Shown here: positions 1 through 34,348 of the stretch, piece by piece
Position numbering within the stretch: position 1 is the stretch's first letter
Layout of the letters: each line of letters opens with the position of its first letter
DNA from: Hemiscyllium ocellatum
Taxonomy: Eukaryota
Reading direction: 5' to 3'
Assembly: GCF_020745735.1 (NCBI RefSeq)
Contig: NW_026869102.1
Span: 128,367 to 192,366, forward strand
Length of the DNA stretch: 64,000 nucleotides
The notes under the pieces: generated by a model
Told to the model about the DNA's origin: nothing
Database searches by the model: none
What the model saw: the letters and a program-made list of their open reading frames with translations, nothing else
Program-made: the position numbers and the translations under genes

Positions 1-3000
1 GATACAGTGAGGGAGATAGGAGAATAATTGAGGGGGAGATACAGTGAGGGAGATGGGAAGATTATTGAGGGGGAGATACAGTGAGGGAGATAGGAGGATT
101 ATTGAGGGGGAGATACAGTGAGGGAGATAGGAGAATAATTGAGGGGGAGATACAGTGAGGGAGATAGGAGGATTATTGAGGGGGAGATACAGTGAGGGAG
201 ATAGGAGGATTATTGAGGGGGAGATACAGTGAGGGAGATGGGAGGATTATTGAGGGGGAGATACAGTGAGAGAGATAGGAAGATTATTGAGGGGGAGATA
301 CAGTGAGGGAGATAGGAGGATAATTGAGGGGGAGATACAGATGGGGAGATAGGAGGATTACTGAGGGGGAGATACAGATGGGGAGATAGGAGGATTATTG
401 AGGGGGAGATACAGTGAGGGAGATGGGAGGATTATTGAGGGGGAGATACAGTGAGGGAGATGGGAGGATTATTGAGGGGGAGATACAGTGAGGGAGATAG
501 GAGAATAATTGAGGGGGAGATACAGTGAGGGAGATGGGAAGATTATTGAGGGGGAGATACAGTGAGGGAGATAGGAGGATTATTGAGGGGGAGATACAGT
601 GAGGGAGATAGGAGAATAATTGAGGGGGAGATACAGTGAGGGAGATAGGAGGATTATTGAGGGGGAGATACAGTGAGGGAGATAGGAGGATTATTGAGGG
701 GGAGATACAGTGAGGGAGATGGGAGGATTATTGAGGGGGAGATACAGTGAGAGAGATAGGAAGATTATTGAGGGGGAGATACAGTGAGGGAGATAGGAGG
801 ATAATTGAGGGGGAGATACAGATGGGGAGATAGGAGGATTATTGAGGGGGAGATACAGATGGGGAGATAGGAGGATTATTGAGGGGGAGATACAGTGAGG
901 GAGATGGGAGGATTATTGAGGGGGAGATACAGTGAGGGAGATGGGAGGATTATTGAGGGGGAGATACAGATGGGGAGATAGGAGGATTATTGAGGGGGAG
1001 ATACAGATGGGGAGATGGGAGGATTATTGAGGGGGAGATACAGTGAGAGAGATAGGAAGATTATTGAGGGGGAGATACAGTGAGGGAGATAGGAGGATTA
1101 TTGAGGGGGAGATACAGATGGGGAGATAGGAAGATTATTGAGGGGGAGATACAGTGAGGGAGATAGGAGGATTATTGAGGGGGAGATACAGATGGGGAGA
1201 TAGGAGGATTATTGAGGGGGAGATACAGTGAGGGAGATAGGAAGATTATTGAGGGGGAGATACAGTGAGGGAGATAGGAAGATTATTGAGGGGGAGATAC
1301 AGTGAGGGAGATAGGAGGATTATTGAGGGGGAGATACAGATGGGGAGATAGGAGGATTATTGAGGGGGAGATACAGTGAGGGCGATAGGAGGATTATTGA
1401 GGGGGAGATACAGTGAGGGAGATAGGAGGATAATTGAGGGGGAGATACAGATGGGGAGATAGGAGGATTATTGAGGGGGAGATACAGTGTGGGAGATAGG
1501 AGGATTATTGAGGGGGAGATACAGTGAGGGAGATAGGAGGATAATTGAGGGGGAGATACAGTGAGGGCGATAGGAGGATTATTGAGGGGGAGATACAGTG
1601 AGGGAGATGGGAGGATTATTGAGGGGGAGATACAGTGAGGGAGATAGGAGGATAATTGAGGGGGAGATACAGTGAGGGAGATAGGAGGATTATTGAGGGG
1701 GTGATACAGTGAGGGAGATAGGAGGATTATTGAGGGGGTGATACAGTGAGGGAGATGGGAGGATTATTGAGGGGGAGATACAGATTGGGAGATAGGAGGA
1801 TTATTGAGGGGGAGATACAGTGAGGGAGATAGGAGGATAATTGAGGGGGAGATACAGATGGGGAGATAGGAGGATTATTGAGGGGGAGATACAGATGGGG
1901 AGGTAAGAGGATTATTGAGGGGGAGATACAGTGAGGGAGATAGGAGGATAATTGAGGGGGAGATACAGATGGGGAGATAGGAGGATTATTGAGGGGGAGA
2001 TACAGTGAGGGAGATAGGAGGATAATTGAGGGGGAGATACAGTGAGGGAGATAGGAGGATTATTGAGGGGGAGATACAGTGAGGGAGATGGGAGGATTAT
2101 TGAGGGGGAGATACAGTGAGGGAGATAGGAGGATAATTGAGGGGGAGATACAGTGAGGGAGATAGGAGGATTATTGAGGGGGTGATACAGTGAGGGAGAT
2201 GGGAGGATTATTGAGGGGGAGATACAGATGGGGAGATAGGAGGATTATTGAGGGGGAGATACAGTGAGGGAGATAGGAGAATAATTGAGGGGGAGATACA
2301 GTGAGGGAGATAGGAGGATAATTGAGGGGGAGATACAGATGGGGGAGATGGGAGGATTATTGAGGGGGAGATACAGATGGGGGAGATGGGAGGATTATTG
2401 AGGGGGAGATACAGATGGGGAGATAGGAGGATTATTGAGGGGGAGATACAGTGAGGGAGATAGGAGGATTATTGAGGGGGAGATACAGATGGGGAGATGG
2501 GAGGATTATTGAGGGGGAGATACAGATGGGGAGGTAAGAGGATTATTGAGGGGGAGATACAGTGAGGGAGATAGGAGGATTATTGAGGGGGAGATACAGA
2601 TGGGGAGATAGGAGGATTATTGAGGGGGAGATAGGAGGATTATTGAGGGGGAGATACAGATGGAGAGGTAAGAGGATTATTGAGGGGGAGATACAGTGAG
2701 GGAGATAGGAGGATTATTGAGGGAGAGATACAGATGGGGAGGTAAGAGGATTATTGAGGGGGAGATACAGTGAGGGAGATAGGAGGATTATTGAGGGGGA
2801 GATACAGATGGGGAGATAGGAGGATTATTGAGGGGGAGATAGGAGGATTATTGAGGGGGAGATACAGTGAGGGAGATAGGAGGATAATTGAGGGGGAGAT
2901 ACAGATGGGGAGATGGGAGGATTATTGAGGGGGAGATACAGTGAGGGAGATAGGATTATTGAGGGGGAGATACAGATGGGGAGATAGGAGGATTATTGAG

Positions 3001-6000
3001 GGGGAGATACAGATGGGGAGATAGGAGGATTATTGAGGGGGAGATACAGTGAGGGAGATGGGAGGATTATTGAGGGGGAGATACAGTGAGGGAGATAGGA
3101 AGATTATTGAGGGGGAGATACAGTGAGGGAGATAGGAGGATAATTGAGGGGGAGATACAGATGGGGAGATAGGAGGATTATTGAGGGGGAGATACAGTGA
3201 GGGAGATAGGAGGATTATTTAGGGAGAGATACAGATGGGGAGATAGGAGGATTATTGAGGGGGAGATACAGTGGGGGAGATGGGAGGATTATTGAGGGGG
3301 AGATACAGATGGGGAGATAGGAAGATTATTGAGGGGGAGATACAGTGAGGGAGATAGGAGGATTATTGAGGGGGAGATACAGATGGGGAGATAGGAGGAT
3401 TATTGAGGGGGAGATACAGTGAGGGAGATAGGAGGATTATTGAGGGGGAGATACAGATGGGGAGATAGGAAGATTATTGAGGGGGAGATACAGTGAGGGA
3501 GATAGGAGGATTATTGAGGGGGAGATACAGATGGGGAGATAGGAGGATTATTGAGGGGGAGATACAGATGGGGAGATAGGAGGATTATTGAGGGGGAGAT
3601 ACAGATGGGGAGGTAAGAGGATTATTGAGGGGGAGATACAGTGAGGGAGATAGGAGGATTATTGAGGGGGAGATACAGATGGGGAGGTAAGAGGATTATT
3701 GAGGGGAAGATACAGTGAGGGAGATAGGAGGATTATTGAGGGGGAGATACAGATGGGGAGATAGGAGGATTATTGAGGGAGAGGTAGGAGGATTATTGAG
3801 GGGGAGATACAGTGAGGGAGATAGGAGGATTATTGAGGGGAAGATACAGTGAGGGAGATAGGAGGATAATTGAGGGGGAGATACAGATGGGGAGATGGGA
3901 GGATTATTGTGGGGGAGATACAGTGAGGGAGATAGGAGGATTATTGAGGGGGAGATACAGTGAGGGAGATAGGAGGATAATTGAGGGGGAGATACAGATG
4001 GGGAGATGGGAGGATTACTGAGGGGGAGATACCGATGGGGAGATGGGAGGATTATTGAGGGGGAGATACAGATGGGGAGATAGGAGGATTATTGAGGGGG
4101 AGATACAGATGGGGAGATAGGAGGATTATTGAGGGGGAGATACAGTGAGGGAGATAGGAGGATTATTGAGGGGGAGATACAGATGGGGAGATAGGAAGAT
4201 TATTGAGGGGGAGATACAGTGAGGGAGATAGGAGGATTATTGAGGGGGAGATACAGATGGGGAGATAGGAGGATTATTGAGGGGGAGATACAGTGAGGGA
4301 GATGGGAGGATTATTGAGGGGGAGATACAGTGAGGGAGATGGGAGGATTATTGAGGGAGAGATACAGATGGGGAGATAGGAAGATTATTGAGGGGGAGAT
4401 ACAGTGAGGGAGATAGGAGGATTATTGAGGGGGAGATACAGTGAGGGAGATAGGAGGATAATTGAGGGGGAGATACAGATGGGGGAGATGGGAGGATTAT
4501 TGAGGGGGAGATACAGATGGGGGAGATGGGAGGATTATTGAGGGGGAGATACAGATGGGGAGATAGGAGGATTATTGAGGGGGAGATACAGATGGGGAGA
4601 TAGGAGGATTATTGAGGGGGAGATACAGTGAGGGAGATAGGAGGATTATTGAGGGGGAGATACAGATGGGGAGATGGGAGGATTATTGAGGGGGAGATAC
4701 AGATGGGGAGGTAAGAGGATTATTGAGGGGGAGATACAGTGAGGGAGATAGGAGGATTATTGAGGGGGAGATACAGATGGGGAGATAGGAGGATTATTGA
4801 GGGGGAGATAGGAGGATTATTGAGGGGGAGATACAGATGGAGAGGTAAGAGGATTATTGAGGGGGAGATACAGTGAGGGAGATAGGAGGATTATTGAGGG
4901 AGAGATACAGATGGGGAGGTAAGAGGATTATTGAGGGGGAGATACAGTGAGGGAGATAGGAGGATTATTGAGGGGGAGATACAGATGGGGAGATAGGAGG
5001 ATTATTGAGGGGGAGATAGGAGGATTATTGAGGGGGAGATACAGTGAGGGAGATAGGAGGATAATTGAGGGGGAGATACAGATGGGGAGATGGGAGGATT
5101 ATTGAGGGGGAGATACAGTGAGGGAGATAGGATTATTGAGGGGGAGATACAGATGGGGAGATAGGAGGATTATTGAGGGGGAGATACAGATGGGGAGATA
5201 GGAGGATTATTGAGGGGGAGATACAGTGAGGGAGATGGGAGGATTATTGAGGGGGAGATACAGTGAGGGAGATAGGAAGATTATTGAGGGGGAGATACAG
5301 TGAGGGAGATAGGAGGATAATTGAGGGGGAGATACAGATGGGGAGATAGGAGGATTATTGAGGGGGAGATACAGTGAGGGAGATAGGAGGATTATTTAGG
5401 GAGAGATACAGATGGGGAGATAGGAGGATTATTGAGGGGGAGATACAGTGGGGGAGATGGGAGGATTATTGAGGGGGAGATACAGATGGGGAGATAGGAA
5501 GATTATTGAGGGGGAGATACAGTGAGGGAGATAGGAGGATTATTGAGGGGGAGATACAGATGGGGAGATAGGAGGATTATTGAGGGGGAGATACAGTGAG
5601 GGAGATAGGAGGATTATTGAGGGGGAGATACAGATGGGGAGATAGGAAGATTATTGAGGGGGAGATACAGTGAGGGAGATAGGAGGATTATTGAGGGGGA
5701 GATACAGATGGGGAGATAGGAGGATTATTGAGGGGGAGATACAGATGGGGAGATAGGAGGATTATTGAGGGGGAGATACAGATGGGGAGGTAAGAGGATT
5801 ATTGAGGGGGAGATACAGTGAGGGAGATAGGAGGATTATTGAGGGGGAGATACAGATGGGGAGGTAAGAGGATTATTGAGGGGGAGATACAGTGAGGGAG
5901 ATAGGAGGATTATTGAGGGGGAGATACAGATGGGGAGATAGGAGGATTATTGAGGGAGAGGTAGGAGGATTATTGAGGGGGAGATACAGTGAGGGAGATA

Positions 6001-9000
6001 GGAGGATTATTGAGGGGAAGATACAGTGAGGGAGATAGGAGGATAATTGAGGGGGAGATACAGATGGGGAGATGGGAGGATTATTGTGGGGGAGATACAG
6101 TGAGGGAGATAGGAGGATTATTGAGGGGGAGATACAGTGAGGGAGATAGGAGGATAATTGAGGGGGAGATACAGATGGGGAGATGGGAGGATTACTGAGG
6201 GGGAGATACCGATGGGGAGATGGGAGGATTATTGAGGGGGAGATACAGATGGGGAGATAGGAGGATTATTGAGGGGGAGATACAGATGGGGAGATAGGAG
6301 GATTATTGAGGGGGAGATACAGTGAGGGAGATAGGAGGATTATTGAGGGGGAGATACAGATGGGGAGATAGGAAGATTATTGAGGGGGAGATACAGTGAG
6401 GGAGATAGGAGGATTATTGAGGGGGAGATACAGATGGGGAGATAGGAGGATTATTGAGGGGGAGATACAGTGAGGGAGATGGGAGGATTATTGAGGGGGA
6501 GATACAGTGAGGGAGATGGGAGGATTATTGAGGGAGAGATACAGATGGGGAGATAGGAAGATTATTGAGGGGGAGATACAGTGAGGGAGATAGGAGGATT
6601 ATTGAGGGGGAGATACAGATGGGGAGATAGGAGGATTATTGAGGGGGAGATACAGTGAGGGAGATAGGAGGATTATTGAGGGGGAGATACAGATGGGGAG
6701 ATAGGAAGATTATTGAGGGGGAGATACAGTGAGGGAGATAGGAGGATTATTGAGGGGGAGATACAGATGGGGAGATAGGAGGATTATTGAGGGGGAGATA
6801 CAGATGGGGAGAGTTAGGAGGATTATTGAGGGGGAGATACAGATGAGGAGATAGGAGGATTATTGAGGGGGAGATACAGATGGGGAGATAGGAAGATTAT
6901 TGAGGGGGAGATACAGTGAGGGAGATAGGAGGATTATTGAGGGGGAGATACAGATGGGGAGATAGGAGGATTATTGAGGGGGAGATACAGTGAGGGAGAT
7001 AGGAGGATTATTGAGGGGGAGATACAGATGGGGAGATAGGAGGATTACTGAGGGGGAGATACAGTGGGGGAGATGGGAGGATTACTGAGGGGGAGATACC
7101 GATGGGGAGATGGGAGGATTATTGAGGGGGAGATACCGATGGGGAGATGGGAGGATTATTGAGGGGGAGATACAGTGTGGGAGATAGGAAGATTATTGAG
7201 GGGGAGATACAGTGAGGGAGATGGGAGGATTATTGAGGGGGAGATACAGATGGGGAGATAGGAAGATTATTGAGGGGGAGATACAGTGAGGGAGATAGGA
7301 GGATTATTGAGGGGGAGATACAGATGGGGAGATAGGAGGATTATTGAGGGGGAGATACAGTGAGGGAGATAGGAGGATTATTGAGGGGGAGATACAGATG
7401 GGGAGATAGGAGGATTATTGAGGGGGAGATACAGATGGGGAGATAGGAGGATTATTGAGGGGGAGATACAGATGGGGAGATAGGAGGATTATTGAGGGGG
7501 AGATACAGATGGGGAGATAGGAGGATTATTGAGGGGGAGATACAGATGGGGAGGTAAGAGGATTATTGAGGGGGAGATACAGTGAGGGAGATAGGAGGAT
7601 TATTGAGGGGGAGATACAGATGGGGAGATAGGAGGATTATTGAGGGGGAGATAGGAGGATTATTGAGGGGGAGATACAGATGGGGAGGTAAGAGGATTAT
7701 TGAGGGGGAGATACAGTGAGGGAGATAGGAGGATTATTGAGGGGGAGATACAGATGGGGAGGTAAGAGGATTATTGAGGGGGAGATACAGTGAGGGAGAT
7801 AGGAGGATTATTGAGGGGGAGATACAGATGGGGAGATAGGAGGATTATTGAGGGGGAGATACAGTGAGGGAGATAGGAGGATTATTGAGGGGAAGATACA
7901 GTGAGGGAGATAGGAGGATAATTGAGGGGGATTTTCAGATGAGATGGGAGGATTATTGAGCGGGAGATACAGTGAGGGAGATAGGAGGATTATTGAAGGG
8001 GAGATACAGTGAGGGAGATAGGAGGATAATCGAGGGGGAGATACAGATGGGGAGATGGGAGGATTACTGAGGGGGAGATACCGATGGGGAGATGGGAGGA
8101 TTATTGAGGGGGAGATACAGATGGGGAGATAGGAGGATTATTGAGGGGGAGATACAGTGAGGGAGATGGGAGGATTATTGAGGGGGAGATACAGATGGGG
8201 AGATAGGAAGATTATTGAGGGGGAGATACAGTGAGGGAGATAGGAGGATAATTGAGGGGGAGATACAGTGAGGGAGATAGGAGGATTATTGAGGGGGAGA
8301 TACAGATGGGGAGATAGGAAGATTATTGAGGGGGAGATACAGTGAGGGAGATAGGAGGATTATTGAGGGGGAGATACAGATGGGGAGATAGGAGGATTAT
8401 TGAGGGGGAGATACAGTGAGGGAGATAGGAGGATTATTGAGGGGGAGATACAGATGGGAGATAGGAGGATTATTGAGGGGGAGATACAGATGGGGAGATA
8501 GGAGGATTATTGAGGGGGAGATACAGATGGGGAGATAGGAGGATTATTGAGGGGGAGATACAGTGAGGGAGATAGGACGATTATTTAGGGAGAGATACAG
8601 ATGGGGAGATAGGAGGATTATTGAGGGAGAGATACAGATGGGGAGGTAAGAGGATTATTGAGGGGGAGATACAGTGGGGGAGATGGGAGGATTACTGAGG
8701 GGGAGATACAGATGGGGAGATAGGAGGATTATTGAGGGGGAGATACAGTGGGGAGATGGGAGGATTACTGAGGGGGAGATACCGATGGGGAGATGGGAGG
8801 ATTATTGAGTCGGAGATACCGATGGGGAGATAGGAGGATTATTGAGGGGGAGATACAGTGTGGGAGATAGGAAGATTATTGAGGGGGAGATACAGTGAGG
8901 GAGATGGGAGGATTATTGAGGGGGAGATACAGATGGGGAGATAGGAAGATTATTGAGGGGGAGATACAGTGAGGGAGATAGGAGGATTATTGAGGGGGAG

Positions 9001-12000
9001 ATACAGTGAGGGAGATAGGAGGATTATTGAGGGGGAGATACAGATGGGGAGATAGGAGGATTATTGAGGGGGAGATACAGTGAGGGAGATAGGAGGATTA
9101 TTGAGGGGGAGATACAGATGGGGAGATAGGAAGATTATTGAGGGGGAGATACAGTGGGGGAGATAGGAGGATTATTGAGGGGGAGATACAGTGGGGGAGA
9201 TAGGAGGATTATTGAGGGGGAGATACAGTGAGGGCGATAGGAGGATTATTGAGGGGAAGATACAGTGAGGGAGATAGGAGGATTATTGAGGGGGAGATAC
9301 CGTGAGGGAGATAGGAGGATTATTGAGGGGAAGATACAGTGAGGGAGATAGGAGGATTATTGAGGGGAAGATACAGTGAGAGAGATAGGAGGATTATTGA
9401 GGGGGAGATACAGTGAGGGAGATAGGAGGATTATTGAGGGGGGGATACAGATGGGCAGATAGGAGGATTATTGAGGGGAAGATACAGTGAGGGAGATAGG
9501 AGGATTATTGAGGGGGAGATACAGTGAGGGAGATAGGAGGATTATTGAGGGGGAGATACAGTGAGGGAGATAGGAGGATTATTGAGGGGGAGATACAGTG
9601 AGGGAGATAGGAGGATTATTGAGGGGAAGATACAGTGAGAGAGATAGGAGGATTATTGAGGGGGAGATACAGTGAGGGAGATAGGAGGATTATTGAGGGG
9701 GAGATACAGATGGGGAGATAAGAGGATTATTGAGGGGGAGATACAGATGGGGAGATAGGAGGATTATTGAGGGGGAGATACAGATGGGGAGATAGGAGGA
9801 TTATTGAGGGGGGGATACAGATGGGCAGATGGGAGGATTATTGAGGGGGAGATACAGATGGGGAGATGGGAGGATTATTGAGGGGGAGATACAGTGAGGG
9901 AGATAGGATAATTGAGGGGGAGATACAGTGAGGGAGATAGGAGGATTATTGAGGGGGAGATACAGATGGGGAGATAGGAAGATTATTGAGGGGGAGATAC
10001 AGTGGGGGAGATGGGAGGATTACTGAGGGGGAGATACCGATGGGGAGATGGGAGGATTATTGAGGGGGAGATACCAATGGGGAGATAGGAGGATTATTGA
10101 GGGGGAGATACAGTGAGGGAGATGGGAGGATTATTGAGGGGGAGATACAGATGGGGAGATAGGAAGATTATTGAGGGGAGATACAGTGAGGGAGATAGGA
10201 GGATTATTGAGGGGGAGATACAGATGGGGAGATAGGAGGATTATTGAGGGGGAGATACAGTGAGGGAGATAGGAGGATTATTGAGGGGGAGATACAGATG
10301 GGGAGATAGGAAGATTATTGAGGGGGAGATACAGTGAGGGAGATAGGAGGATTATTGAGGGGGAGATACAGATGGGGAGATAGGAGGATTATTGAGGGGG
10401 AGATACAGATGGGGAGATAGGAGGATTATTGAGGGGGAGATACAGATGGGGAGATAGGAGGATTATTGAGGGGGAGATACAGTGGGGGAGATAGGAGGAT
10501 TATTGAGGGGGAGATACAGTGAGGGCGATAGGAGGATTATTGAGGGGAAGATACAGTGAGGGAGATAGGAGGATTATTGAGGGGGAGATACCGTGAGGGA
10601 GATAGGAGGATTATTGAGGGGATGATACAGTGAGGGAGATAGGAGGATTATTGAGGGGAAGATACAGTGAGAGAGATAGGAGGATTATTGAGGGGAAGAT
10701 ACAGTGAGAGAGATAGGAGGATTATTGAGGGGGAGATACAGTGAGGGAGATAGGAGGATTATTGAGGGGGAGATACAGATGGGGGAGATAGGAGGATTAT
10801 TGAGGGGGAGATACAGATGGGGGAGATAGGAGGATTATTGAGGGGGAGATACAGATGGGGGAGATAGGAGGATTATTGAGGGGAAGATACAGTGAGAGAG
10901 ATAGGAGGATTACTGAGGGGGAGATACAGTGAGGGAGATGGGAGGATTATTGAGGGGGAGATGGGGAGATACAGATGGGGAGATTGGAGGTTTCTTGCAG
11001 GTGGAGATAGGGGAGATACAGATGCGGAGATACGAGGATTATTGAGGGGGAGATGGGAGGATTATTGAGGGGGAGATACAGTGAGGGAGATAGGAGGATT
11101 ATTGAGGGGGAGATACAGATGGGGAGATAGGAGGATTATTGAGGGGGAGATACAGATGGGGAGATAGGAGGATTATTGAGGGGGGGATACAGATGGGCAG
11201 ATGGGAGGATTATTGAGGGGGAGATACAGATGGGGAGATGGGAGGATTATTGAGGGGGAGATACAGTGAGGGAGACAGGAGGATAATTGAGGGGGAGATA
11301 CAGTGAGGGAGATAGGAGGATTATTGAGGGGCAGATACAGATGGGGAGATAGGAAGATTATTGAGGGGGAGATACAGTGGGGGAGATGGGAGGATTACTG
11401 AGGGGGAGATACCGATGGGGAGATGGGAGGATTATTGAGGGGGAGATGCCGATGGGGAGATAGGAGGATTATTGAGGGGGAGATACAGTGTGGGAGATAG
11501 GAAGATTATTGAGGGGGAGATACAGTGAGGGAGATGGGAGGATTATTGAGGGGGAGATACAGATGGGGAGATAGGAAGATTATTGAGGGGGAGATACAGT
11601 GAGGGAGATAGGAGGATTATTGAGGGGGAGATACAGATGGGGAGATAGGAGGATTATTGAGGGGGAGATACAGATGGGGAGATAGGAGGATTATTGAGGG
11701 GGAGATACAGTGGGGGAGATAGGAGGATTATTGAGGGGGAGATACAGTGAGGGCGATAGGAGGATTATTGAGGGGAAGGTACAGTGAGGGAGATAGGAGG
11801 ATTATTGAGGGGGAGATACCGTGAGGGAGATAGGAGGATTATTGAGGGGAAGATACAGTGAGGGAGATAGGAGGATTATTGAGGTGAAGATACAGTGAGA
11901 GAGATAGGAGGATTATTGAGGGGGAGATACAGTGAGGGAGATAGGAGGATTATTGAGGGGGAGATACAGATGGGGAGATGGGAGGATTATTGAGGGGGAG

Positions 12001-12300
12001 ATGGGGAGATACAGATGGGGAGATTGGAGGTTTCTTGCAGGTGGAGATAGGGGAGATACAGATGCGGAGATACGAGGATTATTGAGGGGGAGATGGGAGG
12101 ATTATTGAGGGGGAGATACAGTGAGGGAGATTGGATGATTATTGAGGGGGAGATACAGATGCGGAGATTGGATGATTATTGAGGGGGAGATACAGATGCG
12201 GAGATGGGAGGATTATTGAGGGGGAGATAGGAGGATTATTGAGGGGGAGATAGGAGGATTATTGAGGGGGAGATAGGAGGATTATTGAGGGGGTGATGGG
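1..12300. repeat. Satellite array A: 37-bp tandem unit GAGGGGGAGATACAGTGAGGGAGATAGGAGGATTATT, ~330 copies. Variant subunits include CAGATGGGG, ATGGGAGG, ATAGGAAG, ATAATTG, ATTACTG and TACCGATGGGG. Higher-order repeats of ~2.14 kb, with ~1.05-1.7 kb blocks in the distal part.
   Basis: Direct reading: unit repeats head-to-tail across the whole interval. Lines 2341-2400 and 4481-4540 are identical; the identical 69-aa artefact ORFs at 3812 and 5989 are offset by 2177 bp. Marker variants ATTACTG/TACCGATG recur near 7080, 8760, 10020 and 11400. No cytosine on the + strand for most of the array. Confidence 0.95.
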
Positions 12301-16200: not shown

Positions 16201-19200
16201 GGGGAATACTGTGGGAGAGATACAAAGGGGAAGAGAGGGGGAATACTGTGGGAGATACAAAGGGGAAGAGAGGGGGAATACTGTGGGGGAGATACAAAGG
16301 GGAAGAGAGAGGGAATACTGTGGGGGGATACAAAGGGGAAGAGAGGGGGAATACTGTGGGAGATATACAAAGGGGAAGAGAGGGGGAATACTGTGGGAGA
16401 GATACAAAGGGGAAGAGAGGGGGAATACTGTGGGAGAGATACAAAGGGGAAGAGAGGGGGAATACTGTGGGAGAGATACAAAGGGGAAGAGAGGGGGAAT
16501 ACTGTGGGGGAGATACAAAGGGGAAGAGAGGGGGAATACTGTGGGAGAGATACAAAGGGGAAGAGAGGGGGAATACTGTGGGGGAGATACAAAGGGGAAG
16601 AGAGGGGGAATACTGTGGGGGAGATACAAAGGGGAAGACAGGGGGAATACTGTGGGAGTGATACAAAGGGGAAGAGAGGGGGAATACTGTGGGGGAGATA
16701 CAAAGGGGAAGAGAGAGGGAATACTGTGGGGGAGATACAAAGGGGAAGAGAGGGGGAATACTGTGGGAGTGATACAAAGGGGAAGAGAGGGGGAATACTG
16801 TGGGAGATATACAAAGGGGAAGAGAGGGGGAATACTGTGGGGGAGATACAAAGGGGAAGAGAGGGGGAATACTGTGGGAGAGATACAAAGGGGAAGAGAG
16901 GGGGAATACTGTGGGGGAGATACAAAGGGGAAGAGAGGGGGAATACTGTGGGAGTGATACAAAGGGGAAGAGAGGGGGAATACTGTGGGAGATATACAAA
17001 GGGGAAGAGAGGGGGAATACTGTGGGAGAGATACAAAGGGGAAGACAGGGGGAATACTGTGGGGGAGATACAAAGGGGAAGAGAGGGGGAATACTGTGGG
17101 GGAGATACAAAGGGGAAGAGAGAGGGAATACTGTGGGGGAGATACAAAGGGGAAGAGAGGGGGAATACTGTGGGAGAGATACAAAGGGGAAGAGAGGGGG
17201 AATACTGTGGGGGAGATACAAAGGGGAAGAGAGAGGGAATACTGTGGGGGAGATACAAAGGGGAAGAGAGGGGGAATACTGTGGGGGAGATACAAAGGGG
17301 AAGAGAGGGGGAATACTGTGGGGGGATACAAAGGGGAAGAGAGGGGGAATACTGTGGGAGTGATACAAAGGGGAAGAGAGAGGGGGAATACTGTGGGGGA
17401 GATACAAAGGGGAAGAGAGGGGGAATACTGTGGGGGAGAGATACAAAGGGGAAGAGAGGGGGAATACTGTGGGGGAGATACAAAGGGGAAGAGAGGGGGA
17501 ATACTGTGGGGGAGATACAAAGGGGAAGAGAGAGGGAATACTGTGGGAGAGATACAAAGGGGAAGAGAGGGGGAATACTGTGGGGGGATACAAAGGGGAA
17601 GAGAGGGGGAATACTGTGGGGGGATACAAAGGGGAAGAGAGGGGGAATACTGTGGGAGAGATATAAAGGGGAAGAGAGGGGGAATACTGTGGGGGAGATA
17701 CAAAGGGGAAGAGAGGGGGAATACTGTGGGGGAGATACAAAGGGGAAGAGAGGGGGAATACTGTGGGGGAGATACAAAGGGGAAGAGAGGGGGAATACTG
17801 TGGGGGAGATACAAAGGGGAAGAGAGGGGGAATACTGTGGGGGAGATACAAAGGGGAAGAGAGGGGGAATACTGTGGGGGAGATACAAAGGGGAAGAGAG
17901 GGGGAATACTGTGGGGGAGATACAAAGGGGAAGAGAGGGGGAATACTGTGGGAGTGATACAAAGGGGAAGAGAGGGGGAATACTGTGGGGGAGATACAAA
18001 GGGGAAGAGAGGGGGAATACTGTGGGGGAGATACAAAGGGGAAGAGAGGGGGAATACTGTGGGAGATATACAAAGGGGAAGAGAGGGGGAATACTGTGGG
18101 GGAGAGATACAAAGGGGAAGAGAGAGGGAATACTGTGGGAGTGATACAAAGGGGAAGAGAGGGGGAATACTGTGGGAGAGATACAAAGGGGAAGAGAGGG
18201 GGAATACTGTGGGAGAGATACAAAGGGGAAGAGAGAGGGAATACTGTGGGAGATATACAAAGGGGAAGAGAGGGGGAATACTGTGGGGGAGATACAAAGG
18301 GGAAGAGAGGGGGAATACTGTGGGGGAGATACAAAGGGGAAGAGAGGGGGAATACTGTGGGGGAGATACAAAGGGGAAGAGAGGGGGAATACTGTGGGAG
18401 ATATACAAAGGGGAAGAGAGGGGGAATACTGTGCGGGAGATACAAAGGGGAAGAGAGGGGGAATACTGTGGGAGTGATACAAAGGGGAAGAGAGGGGGAA
18501 TACTGTGGGGGAGATACAAAGGGGAAGAGAGGGGGAATACTGTGGGGGAGATACAAAGGGGAAGAGAGGGGGAATACTGTGGGAGAGATACAAAGGGGAA
18601 GAGAGGGGGAATACTGTGGGAGAGATACAAAGGGGAAGAGAGGGGGAATACTGTGGGAGAGATACAAAGGGGAAGAGAGGGGGAATACTGTGGGGGAGAT
18701 ACAAAGGGGAAGAGAGGGGGAATACTGTGGGGGAGATACAAAGGGGAAGACAGGGGGAATACTGTGGGAGAGATACAAAGGGGAAGAGAGGGGGAATACT
18801 GTGGGGGAGATACAAAGGGGAAGAGAGGGGGAATACTGTGGGAGTGATACAAAGGGGAAGAGAGGGGGAATACTGTGGGAGAGATACAAAGGGGAAGAGA
18901 GGGGGAATACTGTGGGAGAGATACAAAGGGGAAGAGAGGGGGAATACTGTGGGGGAGATACAAAGGGGAAGAGAGGGGGAATACTGTGGGAGTGATACAA
19001 AGGGGAAGAGAGGGGGAATACTGTGGGGGATACAAAGGGGAAGAGAGAGGGAATACTGTGGGAGATATACAAAGGGGAAGAGAGGGGGAATACTGTGGGG
19101 GAGATACAAAGGGGAAGAGAGGGGGAATACTGTGGGGGAGATACAAAGGGGAAGACAGGGGGAATACTGTGGGGGAGATACAAAGGGGAAGAGAGGGGGA

Positions 19201-20460
19201 ATACTGTGGGGGAGATACAAAGGGGAAGAGAGAGGGAATACTGTGGGAGATATACAAAGGGGAAGAGAGGGGGAATACTGTGGGAGAGATACAAAGGGGA
19301 AGAGAGGGGGAATACTGTGGGGGAGATACAAAGGGGAAGAGAGGGGGAATACTGTGGGAGATACAAAGGGGAAGAGAGGGGGAATACTGTGGGGGATACA
19401 AAGGGGAAGAGAGGGGGAATACTGTGGGAGATACAAAGGGGAAGAGAGGGGGAATACTGTGGGAGATACAAAGGGGAAGAAAGGGGGAATACTGTGGGGG
19501 AGATACAAAGGGGAAGAGAGAGGGAATACTGTGGGGGATACAAAGGGGAAGAGAGGGGGAATACTGTGGGGGAGATACAAAGGGGAAGAGAGGGGGAATA
19601 CTGTGGGGGGAGATACAAAGGGGAAGAGAGGGGGAATACTGTGGGAGATACAAAGGGGAAGAGAGAGGGAATTCTGTGGGGGAGATACAAAGGGGAAGAG
19701 AGGGGGAATACTGTGGGGGAGATACAAAGGGGAAGAGAGAGGGAATTCTGTGGGGGAGATACAAAGGGGAAGAGAGGGGGAATACTGTGGGAGTGATACA
19801 AAGGGGAAGAGAGGGGGAATACTGTGGGAGAGATACAAAGGGGAAGAGAGGGGGAATACTGTGGGAGTGATACAAAGGGGAAGAGAGGGGGAATACTGTG
19901 GGGGAGATACAAAGGGGAAGAGAGAGGGAATACTGTGGGGGAGATACAAAGGGGAAGAGAGGGGGAATACTGTGGGAGAGATACAAAGGGGAAGAGAGGG
20001 GGAATACTGTGGGAGATACAAAGGGGAAGAGAGGGGGAATACTGTGGGAGATACAAAGGGGAAGAGAGAGGGAATACTGTGGGAGAGATACAAAGGGGAA
20101 GAGAGGGGGAATACTGTGGGAGATACAAAGGGGAAGAGAGGGGGAATACTGTGGGGGAGATACAAAGGGGAAGAGAGGGGGAATACTGTGGGAGATACAA
20201 AGGGGAAGAGAGGGGGAATACTGTGGGAGAGATACAAAGGGGAAGAGAGGGGGAATACTGTGGGGGAGATACAAAGGGGAAGAGAGGGGGAATACTGTGG
20301 GAGATACAAAGGGGAAGAGAGGGGGAATACTGTGGGAGAGATACAAAGGGGAAGAGAGGGGGAATACTGTGGGAGATACAAAGGGGAAGAGAGGGGGAAT
20401 ACTGTGGGAGAGATACAAAGGGGAAGAGAGGGGGAATACTGTGGGGGAGATACAAAGGGA
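13250..20460. repeat. Satellite array B: 37-bp tandem unit GGGGGAGATACAAAGGGGAAGAGAGGGGGAATACTGT, ~195 copies. Variants TGGGAGTGATACAAAGG, TGGGAGAGATACAAAGG and TGGGAGATATACAAAGG.
   Basis: Direct reading. Strict 37-bp register over 7.2 kb and essentially C-free on the + strand. Shares GGGGGAGATACA with array A. Confidence 0.95.
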
Positions 20461-20599
20461 GATATAGAGAGAACACAGTGAGAGAGATACAGAGGGGAAA
20501 TACAAAGTGGGAGATGCTGAGGTGGAGAATAAAGAGGGGAGATAGGGAGAATACGGAGGGGTAGATGGGGGAATACCGCGGGGAGATAGAGGGAATGCT

Positions 20600-21190
20600 T
20601 TAACAACACAGAGGTGGAACGATAGGAAGGTGTCGAGCTCCTGGGAGGGGGGTCATCCACAACGAGCTTTCTCGGTCTCTTCACGCGGCGGACGCTCTGG
20701 TCACAAAGACCCAGCAACGTCCATCCCCGCCCCTCCCCTCCACCCCACCCCCTCCCTCCCTCGGGCAGCTGAGGAAATTTGGCGTGACCCTCGCTAACTA
20801 TGAGAGGGTGTGCGGCCGAGAGGGCTCGGTCTGGGGCGTTACCGCTATCCGGCACGGTCACTGCACCATTCCAGATCAGAGACGGTGACAGGGAGGGTGG
20901 GGGGACGCGGCCTGGACAATCACAAAGGACAACCTCCCGTCTCCAGGCTCCGTCTCCCAGGCCCCACTGACCAGGAAAGGCCCCCAGCGTTCTCAAAGAC
21001 CCACCCCACCCTGGGGATGTTTCTGTACCACCTCTCCCCTCCTGTTGTTAGAATACCGAATGGTCTCACAAACCCCTAACATTGGCCTGTCCCTGTGGTT
21101 TTGTTTGTGCTGCTGTCTCCCTATTATTTATCTCAGTGACCTGTCTGTATCGCTCACAAGGCAAACCTTTTCACTGCGTCGCGGGACAAT
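20600..21190. other. ~600-bp unique, non-repetitive island between satellite arrays B and C. Moderately CpG-containing (cgagctc, cacgcggcggacgctc, tgcggccgagagggctcgg, ggcgttaccgctatccggcacgg) and ends in AATAAA at ~21187-21192.
   Basis: No tandem periodicity; base composition differs sharply from flanks. No convincing ORF: the minus-strand ORF 12789..20996 merely reads into it from the satellite. Confidence 0.5.
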
Positions 21191-21199
21191 AAACCCAAT

Positions 21200-24100
21200 T
21201 CAATACAACACAGAGGGGCAGGCGCGGGGGGCAGATACACAGAGGGGCAGGGGCAGATACAGGGGGGCAGGCGCAGAGGGTACAGATACACAGGAGCAGA
21301 TACAGAGGGGCAGAGGCAGGGGGGCAGAGGCAGAGGGGCAGATACAGAGGGGCAGATACACAGGAGCAGACACAGAGGGGCAGATACACAGAGGGGCAGA
21401 TACACAGAGGGGCAGATACACAGGAGCAGATACAGAGGGGCAGACACACAGAGGGGCAGACACACAGAGGGGCAGATACAGAGGGGCAGACCCAGAGGGG
21501 CAGATACACAGGAGCAGATACAGAGGGGCAGACACAGAGGGGCAGACACAGAGGGGCAGATACACAGAGGGGCAGATACACAGAGGGGCAGATACAGAGG
21601 GGCAGACACACAGAGGGGCAGACACACAGAGGGGCAGATACAGAGGGGCAGACCCAGAGGGGCAGACCCAGAGGGGCAGATACACAGGAGCAGATACAGA
21701 GGGGCAGACACACAGAGGGGCAGACACACAGAGGGGCAGACCCAGAGGGGCAGATACACAGGAGCAGATACAGAGGGGCAGACACACAGAGGGGCAGACC
21801 CAGAGGGGCAGACACAGAGGGGCAGATACAGAGAGGGGCAGATACACAGAGGGGCAGACACACAGAGGGGCAGACACACAGAGGGGGGCAGACACAGAGG
21901 GGGGCAGACACACAGAGGGGCAGACACACAGAGGGGGGCAGACACACAGAGGGGCAGACCCAGAGGGGCAGACCCAGAGGGGCAGATACAGAGAGGGGCA
22001 GATACAGAGAGGGGCAGACACACAGAGGGGCAGACACACAGAGGGGCAGATACAGAGAGGGGCAGACACACAGAGGGGCAGATACAGAGGGGCAGATACA
22101 GAGGGGCAGATACAGAGAGGGGCAGACACAGAGGGGCAGACACAGAGGGGCAGATACAGAGAGGGGCAGACACACAGAGGGGCAGATACACAGAGGGGCA
22201 GATACACAGAGGGGCAGACACACAGAGGGGCAGACACACAGAGGGGGGCAGACACAGAGGGGGGCAGACACACAGAGGGGCAGACACACAGAGGGGGGCA
22301 GACACACAGAGGGGCAGACCCAGAGGGGCAGACACAGAGGGGCAGACACACAGAGGGGCAGACACACAGAGGGGCAGACACACAGAGGGGCAGATACAGA
22401 GAGGGGCAGACACACAGAGGGGCAGATACAGAGGGGCAGATACAGAGAGGGGCAGACACACAGAGGGGCAGACCCAGAGAGGGGCAGATACAGAGAGGGG
22501 CAGACACACAGAGGGGCAGACACAGAGGGGCAGACCCAGAGAGGGGCAGACACAGAGGGGCAGATACAGAGGGGCAGACACACAGAGGGGCAGACCCAGA
22601 GAGGGGCAGACACAGAGGGGCAGACACACAGAGGGGCAGATACAGAGAGGGGCAGATACAGAGAGGGGCAGACACACAGAGGGGCAGACACACAGAGGGG
22701 CAGATACAGAGAGGGGCAGATACAGAGAGGGGCAGACACACAGAGGGGCAGATACAGAGAGGGGCAGATACAGAGAGGGGCAGATACAGAGAGGGGCAGA
22801 CACACAGAGGGGCAGATACAGAGAGGGGCAGACACACAGAGGGGCAGACACACAGAGGGGCAGATACAGAGGGGCAGACACAGAGAGGGGCAGATACAGA
22901 GAGGGGCAGATACAGAGAGGGGCAGACACACAGAGGGGCAGACACACAGAGGGGCAGACACAGAGAGGGGCAGACACAGAGAGGGGCAGATACAGAGAGG
23001 GGCAGACACACAGAGGGGCAGACACACAGAGGGGCAGATACAGAGGGGCAGACCCAGAGGGGCAGATACACAGGAGCAGATACAGAGGGGCAGACACAGA
23101 GGGGCAGACACAGAGGGGCAGATACACAGAGGGGCAGATACACAGAGGGGCAGATACACAGAGGGGCAGATACAGAGGGGCAGACACACAGAGGGGCAGA
23201 CACACAGAGGGGCAGATACAGAGGGGCAGACCCAGAGGGGCAGATACACAGGAGCAGATACAGAGGGGCAGACACACAGAGGGGCAGACACACAGAGGGG
23301 CAGACCCAGAGGGGCAGATACACAGGAGCAGATACAGAGGGGCAGACACACAGAGGGGCAGACCCAGAGGGGCAGACACAGAGGGGCAGATACAGAGAGG
23401 GGCAGACACACAGAGGGGCAGACACACAGAGGGGCAGACACAGAGGGGCAGATACACAGAGGGGCAGATACACAGAGGGGCAGACACACAGAGGGGCAGA
23501 CACACAGAGGGGGGCAGACACAGAGGGGGGCAGACACACAGAGGGGGGCAGACACACAGAGGGGGGCAGACACACAGAGGGGCAGACCCAGAGGGGCAGA
23601 CACAGAGGGGCAGATACAGAGAGGGGCAGACACACAGAGGGGCAGACCCAGAGAGGGGCAGATACAGAGAGGGGCTGACACACAGAGGGGCAGACACAGA
23701 GGGGCAGACCCAGAGGGGCAGACCCAGAGAGGGGCAGACACAGAGGGGCAGATACAGAGGGGCAGACACACAGAGGGGCAGACACAGAGGGGCAGACACA
23801 CAGAGGGGCAGATACAGAGAGGGGCAGATACAGAGAGGGGCAGACACACAGAGGGGCAGACACACAGAGGGGCAGATACAGAGAGGGGCAGATACAGAGA
23901 GGGGCAGACACACAGAGGGGCAGATACAGAGAGGGGCAGATACAGAGAGGGGCAGACACACAGAGGGGCAGATACAGAGAGGGGCAGATACAGAGAGGGG
24001 CAGACACACAGAGGGGCAGACACACAGAGGGGCAGATACAGAGGGGCAGACACAGAGAGGGGCAGATACAGAGAGGGGCAGATACAGAGAGGGGCAGACA

Positions 24101-27100
24101 CACAGAGGGGCAGACACACAGAGGGGCAGACACACAGAGGGGCAGACACACAGAGGGGCAGACACACAGAGGGGCAGATACAGAGAGGGGCAGACACACA
24201 GAGGGGCAGACACACAGAGGGGCAGACACAGAGAGGGGCAGACACACAGAGGGGCAGACACACAGAGGGGCAGATACAGAGGGGCAGACACAGAGAGGGG
24301 CAGATACAGAGAGGGGCAGATACAGAGAGGGGCAGACACACAGAGGGGCAGACACACAGAGGGGCAGACACACAGAGGGGCAGACACACAGAGGGGCAGA
24401 CACAGAGAGGGGCAGATACAGAGAGGGGCAGACACACAGAGGGGGGCAGACACACAGAGGGGCAGACCCAGAGGGGCAGACACAGAGGGGCAGACACACA
24501 GAGGGGCAGACACACAGAGGGGCAGACACACAGAGGGGCAGACACACAGAGGGGCAGATACAGAGAGGGGCAGACACACAGAGGGGCAGATACAGAGGGG
24601 CAGATACAGAGAGGGGCAGACACACAGAGGGGCAGACCCAGAGAGGGGCAGATACAGAGAGGGGCAGACACACAGAGGGGCAGACACAGAGGGGCAGACC
24701 CAGAGAGGGGCAGACACAGAGGGGCAGATACAGAGGGGCAGACACACAGAGGGGCAGACCCAGAGAGGGGCAGACACAGAGGGGCAGACACACAGAGGGG
24801 CAGATACAGAGAGGGGCAGATACAGAGAGGGGCAGACACACAGAGGGGCAGACACACAGAGGGGCAGATACAGAGAGGGGCAGATACAGAGAGGGGCAGA
24901 CACACAGAGGGGCAGATACAGAGAGGGGCAGATACAGAGAGGGGCAGATACAGAGAGGGGCAGACACACAGAGGGGCAGATACAGAGAGGGGCAGACACA
25001 CAGAGGGGCAGACACACAGAGGGGCAGATACAGAGGGGCAGACACAGAGAGGGGCAGATACAGAGAGGGGCAGATACAGAGAGGGGCAGACACACAGAGG
25101 GGCAGACACACAGAGGGGCAGACACAGAGGGGCAGACACAGAGAGGGGCAGACACAGAGAGGGGCAGATACAGAGAGGGGCAGACACACAGAGGGGCAGA
25201 CACACAGAGGGGCAGATACAGAGGGGCAGACCCAGAGGGGCAGATACACAGGAGCAGATACAGAGGGGCAGACACAGAGGGGCAGACACAGAGGGGCAGA
25301 TACACAGAGGGGCAGATACACAGAGGGGCAGATACACAGAGGGGCAGATACAGAGGGGCAGACACACAGAGGGGCAGACACACAGAGGGGCAGATACAGA
25401 GGGGCAGACCCAGAGGGGCAGATACACAGGAGCAGATACAGAGGGGCAGACACACAGAGGGGCAGACACACAGAGGGGCAGACCCAGAGGGGCAGATACA
25501 CAGGAGCAGATACAGAGGGGCAGACACACAGAGGGGCAGACCCAGAGGGGCAGACACAGAGGGGCAGATACAGAGAGGGGCAGACACACAGAGGGGCAGA
25601 CACACAGAGGGGCAGACACAGAGGGGCAGATACACAGAGGGGCAGATACACAGAGGGGCAGATACACAGAGGGGCAGACACACAGAGGGGCAGACACACA
25701 GAGGGGGGCAGACACAGAGGGGGGCAGACACACAGAGGGGCAGACACACAGAGGGGGGCAGACACACAGAGGGGCAGACCCAGAGGGGCAGACACAGAGG
25801 GGCAGATACAGAGAGGGGCAGACACACAGAGGGGCAGACCCAGAGAGGGGCAGATACAGACAGGGGCTGACACACAGAGGGGCAGACACAGAGGGGCAGA
25901 CCCAGAGGGGCAGACCCAGAGAGGGGCAGACACAGAGGGGCAGATACAGAGGGGCAGACACACAGAGGGGCAGACACAGAGGGGCAGACACACAGAGGGG
26001 CAGATACAGAGAGGGGCAGATACAGAGAGGGGCAGACACACAGAGGGGCAGACACACAGAGGGGCAGATACAGAGAGGGGCAGATACAGAGAGGGGCAGA
26101 CACACAGAGGGGCAGATACAGAGAGGGGCAGATACAGAGAGGGGCAGACACACAGAGGGGCAGATACAGAGAGGGGCAGATACAGAGAGGGGCAGACACA
26201 CAGAGGGGCAGACACACAGAGGGGCAGATACAGAGGGGCAGACACAGAGAGGGGCAGATACAGAGAGGGGCAGATACAGAGAGGGGCAGACACACAGAGG
26301 GGCAGACACACAGAGGGGCAGACACACAGAGGGGCAGACACACAGAGGGGCAGACACAGAGAGGGGCAGATACAGAGAGGGGCAGACACACAGAGGGGCA
26401 GACACACAGAGGGGCAGACACAGAGAGGGGCAGACACACAGAGGGGCAGACACAGAGGGGCAGACACAGAGGGGCAGACACAGAGAGGGGCAGACACAGA
26501 GAGGGGCAGACACAGAGAGGGGCAGACACACAGAGGGGCAGATACAGAGAGGGGCAGACACAGAGAGGGGCAGACACACAGAGGGGCAGATACAGAGAGG
26601 GGCAGACACAGAGAGGGGCAGACACAGAGAGGGGCAGACACAGAGAGGGGCAGACACAGAGGGGCAGACACAGAGGGGCAGATACAGAGAGGAGCAGACA
26701 CAGAGGGGCAGACACAGAGGGGCAGATACAGAGGGGCAGATACAGAGGGGCAGACACAGAGGGGCAGATACAGAGAGGGGCAGATACAGAGAGGGGCAGA
26801 CACACAGAGGGGCAGACACACAGAGGGGCAGACACAGAGGGGCAGACACAGAGGGGCAGACACACAGAGGGGCAGACACACAGAGGGGCAGACACACAGA
26901 GGGGCAGATACAGAGAGGGGCAGACACACAGAGGGGCAGACACACAGAGGGGCAGACACAGAGGGGCAGACACAGAGGGGCAGATACAGAGAGGGGCAGA
27001 TACAGAGAGGGGCAGATACAGAGAGGGGCAGACACACAGAGGGGGGCAGATACAGAGAGGGGCAGACACAGAGGGGCAGACACAGAGGGGCAGATACAGA

Positions 27101-27838
27101 GAGGAGCAGACACAGAGGGGCAGACACAGAGGGGCAGATACAGAGAGGAGCAGACACAGAGGGGCAGACACACAGAGGGGCAGACACAGAGGGGCAGACA
27201 CAGAGGGACAGATACAGAGAGGGGCAGATACAGAGAGGGGCAGACACACAGAGGGGCAGACACACAGAGGGGCAGACACAGAGGGGCAGACACAGAGGGG
27301 CAGACACACAGAGGGGCAGACACACAGAGGGGCAGATACAGAGAGGGGCAGACACACAGAGGGGCAGACACAGAGGGGCAGACACAGAGGGGCAGACACA
27401 GAGAGGGGCAGATACAGAGAGGGGCAGATACAGAGAGGGGCAGATACAGAGAGGGGCAGACACACAGAGGGGCAGACACAGAGGGGCAGACACAGAGAGG
27501 GGCAGATACAGAGAGGGGCAGATACAGAGAGGGGCAGATACAGAGAGGGGCAGACACACAGAGGGGCAGACACAGAGGGGCAGACACAGAGAGGGGCAGA
27601 TACAGAGAGGGGCAGATACAGAGAGGGGCAGACACAGAGAGGGGCAGATACAGAGAGGGGCAGACACAGAGAGGGGCAGATACAGAGAGGGGCAGATACA
27701 GAGAGGGGCAGACACACAGAGGGGCAGATACAGAGAGGGGCAGATACAGAGAGGGGCAGATACAGAGAGGGGCAGACACAGAGAGGGGCAGATACAGAGA
27801 GGGGCAGACACACAGAGGGGCAGACACAGAGGGGCAGA
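21200..27838. repeat. Minisatellite array C: 16-bp unit CAGAGGGGCAGAYACA with 18-bp variants (CAGAGAGGGGCAGACACA, CAGAGGGGCAGACACACA), ~390 copies. Local sub-periodic motifs (e.g. CAGGAGCAGATACAGAGGGGCAGAC) mark higher-order blocks.
   Basis: Direct reading; the + strand is essentially T-free over 6.6 kb. Near-identical stretches recur, e.g. 21430-21800 vs 23040-23400 and 25200-25560. Confidence 0.95.
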
Positions 27839-27934
27839 TAGTGGAATACAGAAGGGGAGAGACGGGCAGAAAGGGAGAACATGGAGGGGGAGATGGGGAT
27901 GATGGAGGAATCCTGTGGGGGAGGCACAGGGGAA

Positions 27935-28205
27935 TACTGAGGGGGAGATGGGGGGGAAATACTGAGGGGGAGATGGGAAATACTGAGGGGGAGATGGGGG
28001 AAATAGTGAGGGGGAGATGGGGGAAATAGTGAGGGAGAGATGGGGAATACTGAGGGGGAGATGGGGGGAATACTGAGGGAGAGATGGGGAATACTGAGGG
28101 GGAGATGGGGGAAATACTGAGGGGGAGATGGGGGAAATACTGAGGGAGAGATGGGGAATACTGAGGGGGAGATGGGGAAATACTGAGGGGGAGATGGGGG
28201 AAATA
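27935..28205. repeat. Minisatellite D: ~23-bp unit TACTGAGGGGGAGATGGGGGAAA, ~11 copies.
   Basis: Direct reading; shares the GAGGGGGAGAT core with arrays A and B. Confidence 0.9.
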
Positions 28206-28400: not shown

Positions 28401-28565
28401 GGCTGAATGGCCTGTGTGTGTGTGAGAGAGACCAGCAGGCAATGGGATGGGCTGAATGGCCTATGTGTGTGAGAGAGAGAGACCAGCAGGCAATGGGATG
28501 GGCTGAATGGCCTATGTGTGTGAGAGAGAGAGACCAGCAGGCAATGGGATGGGCTGAATGGCCAC
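28400..28565. repeat. Tandem triplication of a 51-bp unit GGGCTGAATGGCCTATGTGTGTGAGAGAGAGAGACCAGCAGGCAATGGGAT, derived from the LINE 3' end.
   Basis: Three consecutive near-identical copies; a single-copy homologue follows the LINE tail at 41521-41585. Confidence 0.85.
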
Positions 28566-29993: not shown

Positions 29994-30030
29994 ATGGTCA
30001 GCGTTTTCCTGTTCGTGCCGAACCTCATTG
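29994..30030 (+). CDS. CDIPT: CDIPT exon 1 (MVSVFLFVPNLIG, phase-1 end); donor GTCAGT at 30031.
   Basis: Matches human CDIPT N-terminus (MPDENIFLFVPNLIGYARIV...). ATG preceded by an in-frame stop; GT donor. Confidence 0.8.
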
Positions 30031-34345: not shown

Positions 34346-34348
34346 TAG

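Follow-up and report, generated by a model that had tools for sequence, protein, structure and literature searches.

A compound G-rich minisatellite cluster upstream of CDIPT in Hemiscyllium ocellatum

The DNA analyzed here is a 64-kb window of Hemiscyllium ocellatum contig NW_026869102.1 (all coordinates below are those of this window), in which positions 1-28205, upstream of the CDIPT gene, are occupied by four tandem arrays, A to D. This tract is very probably a compound G-rich and purine-rich cluster of minisatellites or small satellites, built from one family of related units and most likely without a dedicated function. The original prediction, made from the sequence, had described the same positions as extreme strand asymmetry over ~28 kb, with a dense potential for G-quadruplexes (G4s), i-motifs and triplexes that might act as a barrier element next to the CDIPT promoter. 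Here, the anatomy of the arrays, the ancestry of their units, their motif scores and the orthologous loci of two other sharks are considered together, and alternative explanations are weighed where the evidence bears on them.

Anatomy, ancestry and strand composition of the arrays

Arrays were called by Tandem Repeats Finder (TRF) over the window (Table 1). All four arrays consist of head-to-tail units in the 10-100-bp range that defines minisatellites, with 85-95% matches, and tandem arrays in total make up 64% of the 64-kb window. The arrays are not continuous but are interrupted by two non-regular stretches: a transition at 12003-13238, which includes a short 34-bp sub-array (13036-13167), and an interruption at 20500-21330. 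Units of array C have the general form AGGGGCAGA(C/T)ACA(CA)G, with a single GGGG run per unit and a run spacing of 10-12 nt. Because the + strand of this array is nearly T-free, its minus strand is nearly A-free and contains no stop codons; the minus-strand open reading frames (ORFs) of 2356 and 2381 amino acids that extend across it (21171-28345) were rejected as artefacts that could mislead a gene caller. A search of the whole window against Rfam at gathering thresholds returned zero matches.

All unit types share a core, GGGG(G/C)AGATACAG or GGGGAATACTG. An ungapped alignment of the A and B units has identity at 28 of 37 positions, and the scores for all pairs of unit types are higher than those of shuffled controls (z = 3.3 to 12.9). 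Allowing at most one mismatch, three spellings of the core occur 528, 208 and 763 times inside 1-28205, and the remaining 36 kb of the window contains one core site, on the minus strand. At zero mismatches, the core was not found in either of the loci used for comparison, namely the CDIPT locus of Chiloscyllium punctatum (L001) and the whale-shark locus (L002; NC_063380.1). An origin from a dispersed element was rejected, since the core is essentially confined to the arrays, is absent from L001 and L002 at zero mismatches, and the B-C insert has no second copy in the window or in L001.

Two further observations touch on ancestry. The unique insert between arrays B and C (~20600-21200), for which no second copy was found in the window or in L001, may be an ancestral spacer or an inserted element; a C-rich tract within it (~20720-20770) yields the region's only minus-strand G4-type motifs. 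In addition, an intronic tandem repeat of C. punctatum (L001 21089-22009) carries GGGGTTAGATACAGAG between long C-runs, with 11 of 13 bases matching the array core, and this GGGTTAGATACAG-bearing repeat could be either the source element of the core or a coincidence.

Growth of the arrays has left several traces. The arrays contain 66 (array A), 33 and 18 unit variants, which fall into ordered, non-random patterns when units are coded as letters, and the array edges are degenerate. Multi-unit blocks are repeated in tandem: block 1-480 of array A recurs at +481 bp (99.8% identical), block 2400-4300 of the same array at +2177 bp (4577-6477; 100% and 99.9% identical), and block 13600-14100 of array B at +553 bp (100% identical). 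Tandem multi-unit duplicates, degenerate edges and ordered variants are the usual marks of unequal exchange or slippage. The four arrays go back to a single short core, GGGG(G/C)AGATACAG, from which the 37-, 16/14- and 23-bp units arose, and these were then probably amplified through unequal exchange or replication slippage, often as multi-unit blocks. The near-perfect pair at 2400-4300 and 4577-6477 could have arisen by very recent unequal exchange or else be a duplication introduced in assembly. Compared with other positions, the G-run positions are less variable within array A and more variable within array B; with the two arrays pointing in opposite directions, within-array variation gives no sign of selection on the G-runs. 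At the level of the sequence, no evidence for a function of the arrays was found.

The predicted scarcity of C in arrays A and B and of T in array C, on the + strand, was confirmed. C accounts for 3.0% of array A and 5.5% of array B (G 45.8% and 46.9%, GC skew +0.88 and +0.79, respectively), while T accounts for 2.5% of array C (G 40.9%, GC skew +0.34); the GC skew of array D is +0.84. Purines make up 77-83% across the arrays and 78.5% of 1-28205 as a whole, and GC skew stays between +0.74 and +0.89 along the first 20 kb. GC content amounts to 49, 52, 61 and 56% in arrays A, B, C and D, respectively, with >50% counting as GC-rich in the sense of PMC3486850. The C bases occupy fixed positions, one in each unit of array A and two in each unit of array B, and 61% of the array C units are T-free; C-free runs do not exceed 107 nt, and T-free runs do not exceed 191 nt. 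The arrays contain 30 CpG dinucleotides in 26 kb.

The asymmetry proposed for ~28 kb is thus real as composition, but it is not a 28-kb signal: it exists because a few related short units, each with a composition inherited once, were copied ~950 times, and the effective sample is accordingly that handful of units and not 28 kb. A large compositional anomaly can in this way reduce to a single amplified 37-bp unit. Strand asymmetry of minisatellites is treated here as background, together with PMC3486850; a search of a limited set of papers for it returned nothing.

Predicted G-quadruplexes, triplexes and R-loops

Scans for G4 and other non-B motifs were performed with our own re-implementations. 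A canonical G4 motif was defined as four tracts of at least three G with loops of 1-7 nt (G3+N1-7) and a relaxed motif as G3+N1-12; motif counts were compared with those of mononucleotide shuffles, and G4Hunter was applied with a 25-nt window and a threshold of 1.5. The three to four G-runs originally attributed to each 37-bp unit describe array B, where 168 of 171 units contain three runs of at least three G, but not array A, where two runs are found in 227 of 281 units (81%), three in 41 and one in 13; among the counted units, none has four. No canonical motif is present in arrays A-D (~26 kb), for which shuffles give ~53 (~28, 20 and 6 in A, B and C), and one canonical motif is located in the transition at 12003-13238. 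Most spacers between runs of at least three G measure 18, 11 and 10 nt in array A, fall within 6-11 nt in array B and measure 12 or 10 nt in array C; none of ~1,700 spacers is 3 nt or shorter.

Relaxed motifs and G4Hunter scores differ among the arrays (Table 1). The highest mean G4Hunter score belongs to array D, and the best G4 scores among the large arrays to array B; the threshold is reached in 42% (B) and 66% (D) of windows, but seldom in C and weakly in A. With the G-quadruplex model of ViennaRNA, four-layer G4 folds were obtained for B, C and D, and for no variant of A; this run combined DNA stacking parameters with an RNA-derived G4 term and is therefore heuristic. Without G4s, the G strand has a minimum free energy (MFE) of 0.0 kcal/mol, that is, no competing hairpins. 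These models suggest a G4 potential that is real but moderate, of the long-loop type, located mostly in B and D (together 7.6 kb) and weak in A, the largest array. Array C could fold into G4s just with 10-12-nt loops, and the i-motif potential would mirror that for G4s and share its long loops. The regularly spaced G-runs of the + strand would be a side effect of the unit, able to fold into long-loop quadruplexes. The dense + strand G4 potential of the original prediction is therefore correct in that it is confined to that strand, but overstated, since the arrays hold no canonical motif and the relaxed motif count of array A equals that of its shuffles.

These results bear directly on the reading in which the tract is a dense G4, i-motif and triplex region that stalls polymerases and forms a barrier element by which the CDIPT promoter is protected or regulated. 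Although all G-runs lie on the + strand, free of competing Watson-Crick structure, the canonical motif count over ~26 kb is below that of composition-matched shuffles. Likewise, the folding of B, C and D in the ViennaRNA model and the G4Hunter scores of B and D are offset by the largest array, A, which has no ViennaRNA G4 and a long-loop motif count matching its shuffles. In yeast assays of CEB1 and CEB25, array instability in vivo resulted only from G4s with short loops (<=3 nt), and motifs with several loops >4 nt count as false positives (PMC5491262), whereas no loop of <=3 nt is available here. The arrays stop 1.8 kb from the CDIPT ATG, and the array at the same site in C. punctatum has 53 canonical motifs in 7 kb, both of which would suit a barrier; yet the units differ between the species (36 versus 37, 16 and 23 bp), indicating that no specific structure is conserved, and H-DNA motifs are absent from 1-28205. 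Taken together, a barrier of this kind is highly improbable.

The triplex component of the original prediction was not recovered. Under published H-DNA criteria (perfect mirror arms >=10 nt, spacer <8 nt, >=90% purine or pyrimidine, AT <80%; PMC11879447), positions 1-28205 contain zero motifs. Array C has 112 mirror repeats that are merely 74-76% purine, and purine runs reach at most 10 nt in A and 9 nt in C. The 20-nt purine tract of the array B unit (190 copies) is without mirror symmetry and would at most be a target for an intermolecular triplex. Outside the arrays, nine H-DNA motifs occur in 28206-30000 and 129 in 30001-64000, the candidates being (GGGAGA)n and (GA)n tracts at ~28940-29634 and an intronic TC array. 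A G-rich sequence with G-runs is not equivalent to a G4-prone or triplex-prone one.

Potential R-loops were called by a re-implemented QmRLFS-type rule, which asks for a G-cluster initiation zone and, no more than 50 nt further on, a stretch of 100 nt or more with >=40% G. The + strand of arrays A-D contains 447 initiation zones, 437 of which are then followed by a zone of >=40% G, and the - strand of the same arrays contains none. Zones with an elongation zone on the + strand (m1/m2) number 35/136 in A, 78/95 in B, 34/63 in C and 1/4 in D. If the arrays were transcribed rightward, their G-runs would favour R-loops, which would be the most likely structural consequence for the tract under that condition.

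Table 1. Coordinates of the arrays and neighbouring features in the window, with relaxed G4 motif counts and G4Hunter scores of the arrays
Feature	Position	Strand	Description	Copies	G3+N1-12 motifs (shuffle mean)	Mean G4Hunter	G4Hunter windows >=1.5
Array A	1..12002	+	37-bp unit GATACAGTGAGGGAGATAGGAGGATTATTGAGGGGGA; 66 unit variants; extends past window start	~324	57 (58.5)	1.18	14%
A-B degenerate transition	12003..13238	+	Eroded core copies of variable length; C 6.9%, purine 76%
Array B	13239..20499	+	37-bp unit GATACAAAGGGGAAGAGAGGGGGAATACTGTGGGGGA; three G-runs per unit plus a purine tract of 20 nt	~197	146 (41)	1.42	42%
B-C interruption	20500..21330	.	Degenerate units either side of ~600 bp unique sequence; near-balanced composition
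Array C	21331..27838	+	16-bp units AGGGGCAGACACACAG or AGGGGCAGATACAGAG, 14-bp AGGGGCAGACACAG	~420	95 (15)	0.95	1.5%
Array D with degenerate lead-in	27839..28205	+	23-bp unit GGGGAAATACTGAGGGGGAGATG; array proper 27895-28205	~13	7 (3)	1.57	66%
Promoter-proximal segment	28206..29993	+	Between arrays and CDIPT ATG; orthologous to L001 8440-10187, 76% identity
CDIPT first coding exon	29994..30030	+	MVSVFLFVPNLIG, then GT donor
CDIPT coding exon matches	~29994-30030, 34342-34476, 35267-35420, 36766-36819, 39437-39520, 44318-44480	+	tblastn

Orthologous loci and the CDIPT neighbourhood

The C. punctatum locus is colinear with the window, with 76-87% identity in non-coding DNA, and contains an array of at least 7 kb (it ends at the locus edge) in the same position and orientation as the H. 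ocellatum arrays. Its 36-bp unit, AGATGGGAGAATATAGAGGGGGAGGTACTGAGGGGG (G 51%, C 4%, GC skew +0.85), is closest to the array D unit of the window (D23 versus Cpun36, z = 8.2), and its 53 canonical G4 motifs are due to a GGGGGAGGGACTGAGGGGGAGATGGG variant. Other arrays of this locus, with 55-, 74-, 51-, 43/34- and 31-bp units, are also syntenic with the window, and the cumulative GC skew climbs along L001 as well. An array at the same site in two genera indicates that the array is older than the Hemiscyllium/Chiloscyllium split and that its unit has since turned over. Conservation of position and orientation in the two genera is compatible with inertia.

In the whale shark, ~7 kb separate CDIPT from a co-oriented zinc-finger gene. 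Outside a 500-N assembly gap, no array of the same family was found in this intergene: three core matches were counted versus 0.75 expected, a chance-level number reached by 4 of 100 shuffles. The gap (L002 8821-9320) is located 0.7 kb upstream of the CDIPT ATG, with CA-rich and purine-rich repeats on its flanks. On its 4.16-Mb chromosome, the whale-shark orthologue occupies 4.02-4.04 Mb, ~116 kb from the chromosome end, which would fit the terminal clustering of human GC-rich minisatellites (PMC3486850).

Misassembly had been named from the outset as an outcome that would undo the prediction, and the arrays, or much of their length, might be an artefact of over-expansion or of an incorrect join in a minor scaffold rich in repeats. 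The H. ocellatum record that carries CDIPT is just 430 kb long, in an assembly with 1937 minor scaffolds (PMC10587355), but its flanks are colinear with those of C. punctatum, and this independently assembled species has a same-family array of at least 7 kb at the site. Internal blocks of 0.5-2.2 kb repeated at 99.8-100% identity could stem from read-overlap errors, whereas the 66, 33 and 18 unit variants, their ordered patterns and the degenerate edges are like those of real arrays. The whale-shark gap suggests that the region is hard to assemble. A same-family array in a second species speaks against the arrays themselves being a product of assembly, and gross misassembly is unlikely; an artefact affecting the arrays or much of their length is, on balance, very unlikely.

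The comparison also informs a second functional reading, namely that the tract is a directional R-loop-prone element acting as a pause-type terminator or insulator between a co-oriented upstream gene and CDIPT, for which the G-richness of the non-template strand would matter rather than the sequence of the unit. The restriction of R-loop initiation zones to the + strand, a GC skew of +0.8 to +0.9 and the near absence of CpG would be expected of such an element, but rightward transcription of the arrays is hypothetical, and the upstream gene of H. ocellatum lies beyond the window. In the whale shark, the upstream zinc-finger gene is indeed on the CDIPT strand; however, the ~7-kb intergene has no family array (the 500-N gap aside), suggesting that a large array is not needed for CDIPT. 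Orientation and G-richness were kept in C. punctatum despite the changed unit, while 28 kb far exceeds the need of a terminator. This reading is therefore very unlikely.

A related proposal is that selection acted on strand composition and not on sequence, keeping a CpG-free, R-loop/G4-prone array in one orientation upstream of CDIPT since before the Hemiscyllium-Chiloscyllium split, and it is given very little probability. If it were true, the tract might, for example, terminate transcription directionally, insulate, or set replication polarity on a small chromosome dense in repeats. Should the arrays prove to influence CDIPT or replication, the locus would be a natural case of conserved composition without conserved sequence, although nothing here points in that direction.

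The preferred reading, a cluster of amplified related units most likely without a dedicated function, has observations of its own to answer. Positive GC skew is found in 11 of the 13 arrays of the window, which one amplified unit cannot explain, and the 22.8-kb non-array remainder is G-rich too (skew +0.16), the + strand being the sense strand of CDIPT. The maintenance of a G-rich array in position in two hemiscylliid genera could reflect selection instead of inertia. Finally, the array lengths rest on a single 430-kb assembly record. All of these weigh against that reading.

CDIPT itself was located by tblastn, using a human CDIPT sequence as query, which yielded six exon matches on the + strand (Table 1). 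The second coding exon is matched by Pfam PF01066 (CDP-alcohol phosphatidyltransferase), and the assembled protein is 90% identical to CDIPT of C. punctatum and the same as H. ocellatum XP_060679280.1 except at hand-made exon joins. The arrays do adjoin the CDIPT promoter, as originally proposed, with the ATG at 29994, 1788 bp past the array end. The promoter-proximal segment between them includes a 51-bp array (28397-28563), the (GGGAGA)n tract and a (GA)n-rich 38-bp array (29054-29634), and it is the only place near the promoter with H-DNA-type motifs (nine, in (GGGAGA)n/(GA)n). At the site orthologous to the (GA)n region, C. punctatum has a 28-bp array that lacks the (GA)n part (L001 9157-9645).

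Several other repeats were observed in the window. LINE reverse-transcriptase fragments (Pfam RVT_1) are located in CDIPT introns at 33368-34084, 40270-41342 and 46596-47033 (+), among others; they share a recurrent protein tail, and related copies occur at several sites of L001. A second large array occupies 53011-64000, at least 11 kb, and runs past the window end; its unit is 51 bp long (AAGGGTCACTCACTGTGTAACCGTACAGAGTCAGTGTTTATACAGCAGGGT), and sub-periodicities of 86 and 73 bp are present. It contains no G4 motifs and is syntenic with a 51-bp array of C. punctatum (L001 33307-34808).

Relation to known repeat systems

Mammalian immunoglobulin switch regions are kilobase-long tandem arrays of short units with one G-rich strand, prone to R-loops and G4s if that strand is the non-template strand. 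The likeness of the shark arrays to these regions is physical only: the locus is not in an intron of an immunoglobulin gene, its neighbour is CDIPT, and no known promoter drives transcription through it. AGCT and GAGCT motifs are absent from arrays A-D, with three AGCT in the whole of 1-28205. An assignment to switch regions was rejected in view of this absence and of the neighbouring gene.

When a satellite unit contains a non-B motif, the array multiplies it (PMC11661062). The primate repeats LSAU, MSR1, GSAT and TAR1 resemble the shark arrays in having a G4-type motif in the repeat unit, such that kilobase blocks score as non-B DNA (PMC11661062), although their sequences are unrelated. For LSAU, three motifs were supported as G4-forming by circular dichroism (CD) spectroscopy, and BG4 peaks together with methylation profiles suggested G4 formation at most G4-enriched primate repeats (PMC11661062). 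In the shark arrays, by contrast, G4s are predicted, and no canonical motif is present.

Arrays of this sort give rise to spurious giant ORFs, assembly gaps (as in the whale shark) and inflated counts of non-B motifs, and their recognition is of value for annotation and assembly.

GC-rich minisatellites bearing G4 motifs are a known class, clustered near human chromosome ends (PMC3486850), and the CEB1, CEB25 and HRAS1 variable number tandem repeats (VNTRs) are the nearest points of comparison. The shark tract differs from them in length, with at least 28 kb versus the 0.7-1.7 kb of the alleles assayed in yeast (PMC3486850), and in its loops, which are all at least 4 nt and mostly 8-18 nt, whereas the G4s that destabilize CEB1 and CEB25 have loops of <=3 nt (PMC5491262). 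Moreover, with 49-52% GC, arrays A and B are hardly GC-rich, unlike this GC-rich class in human. Shared features are a unit length of tens of bp (39, 52 and 28 bp versus 37, 16 and 23 bp in the shark), a G-rich strand on which each unit carries one or more G-runs and the array thus multiplies the motif, interspersed unit variants, and a rapid turnover of the arrays between species. The setting is likewise intergenic or promoter-proximal, and the class is found near chromosome ends, as is the whale-shark orthologue. The tract upstream of CDIPT is a G-rich, strand-asymmetric minisatellite or small satellite of a well-known kind, of which this locus is a new instance.

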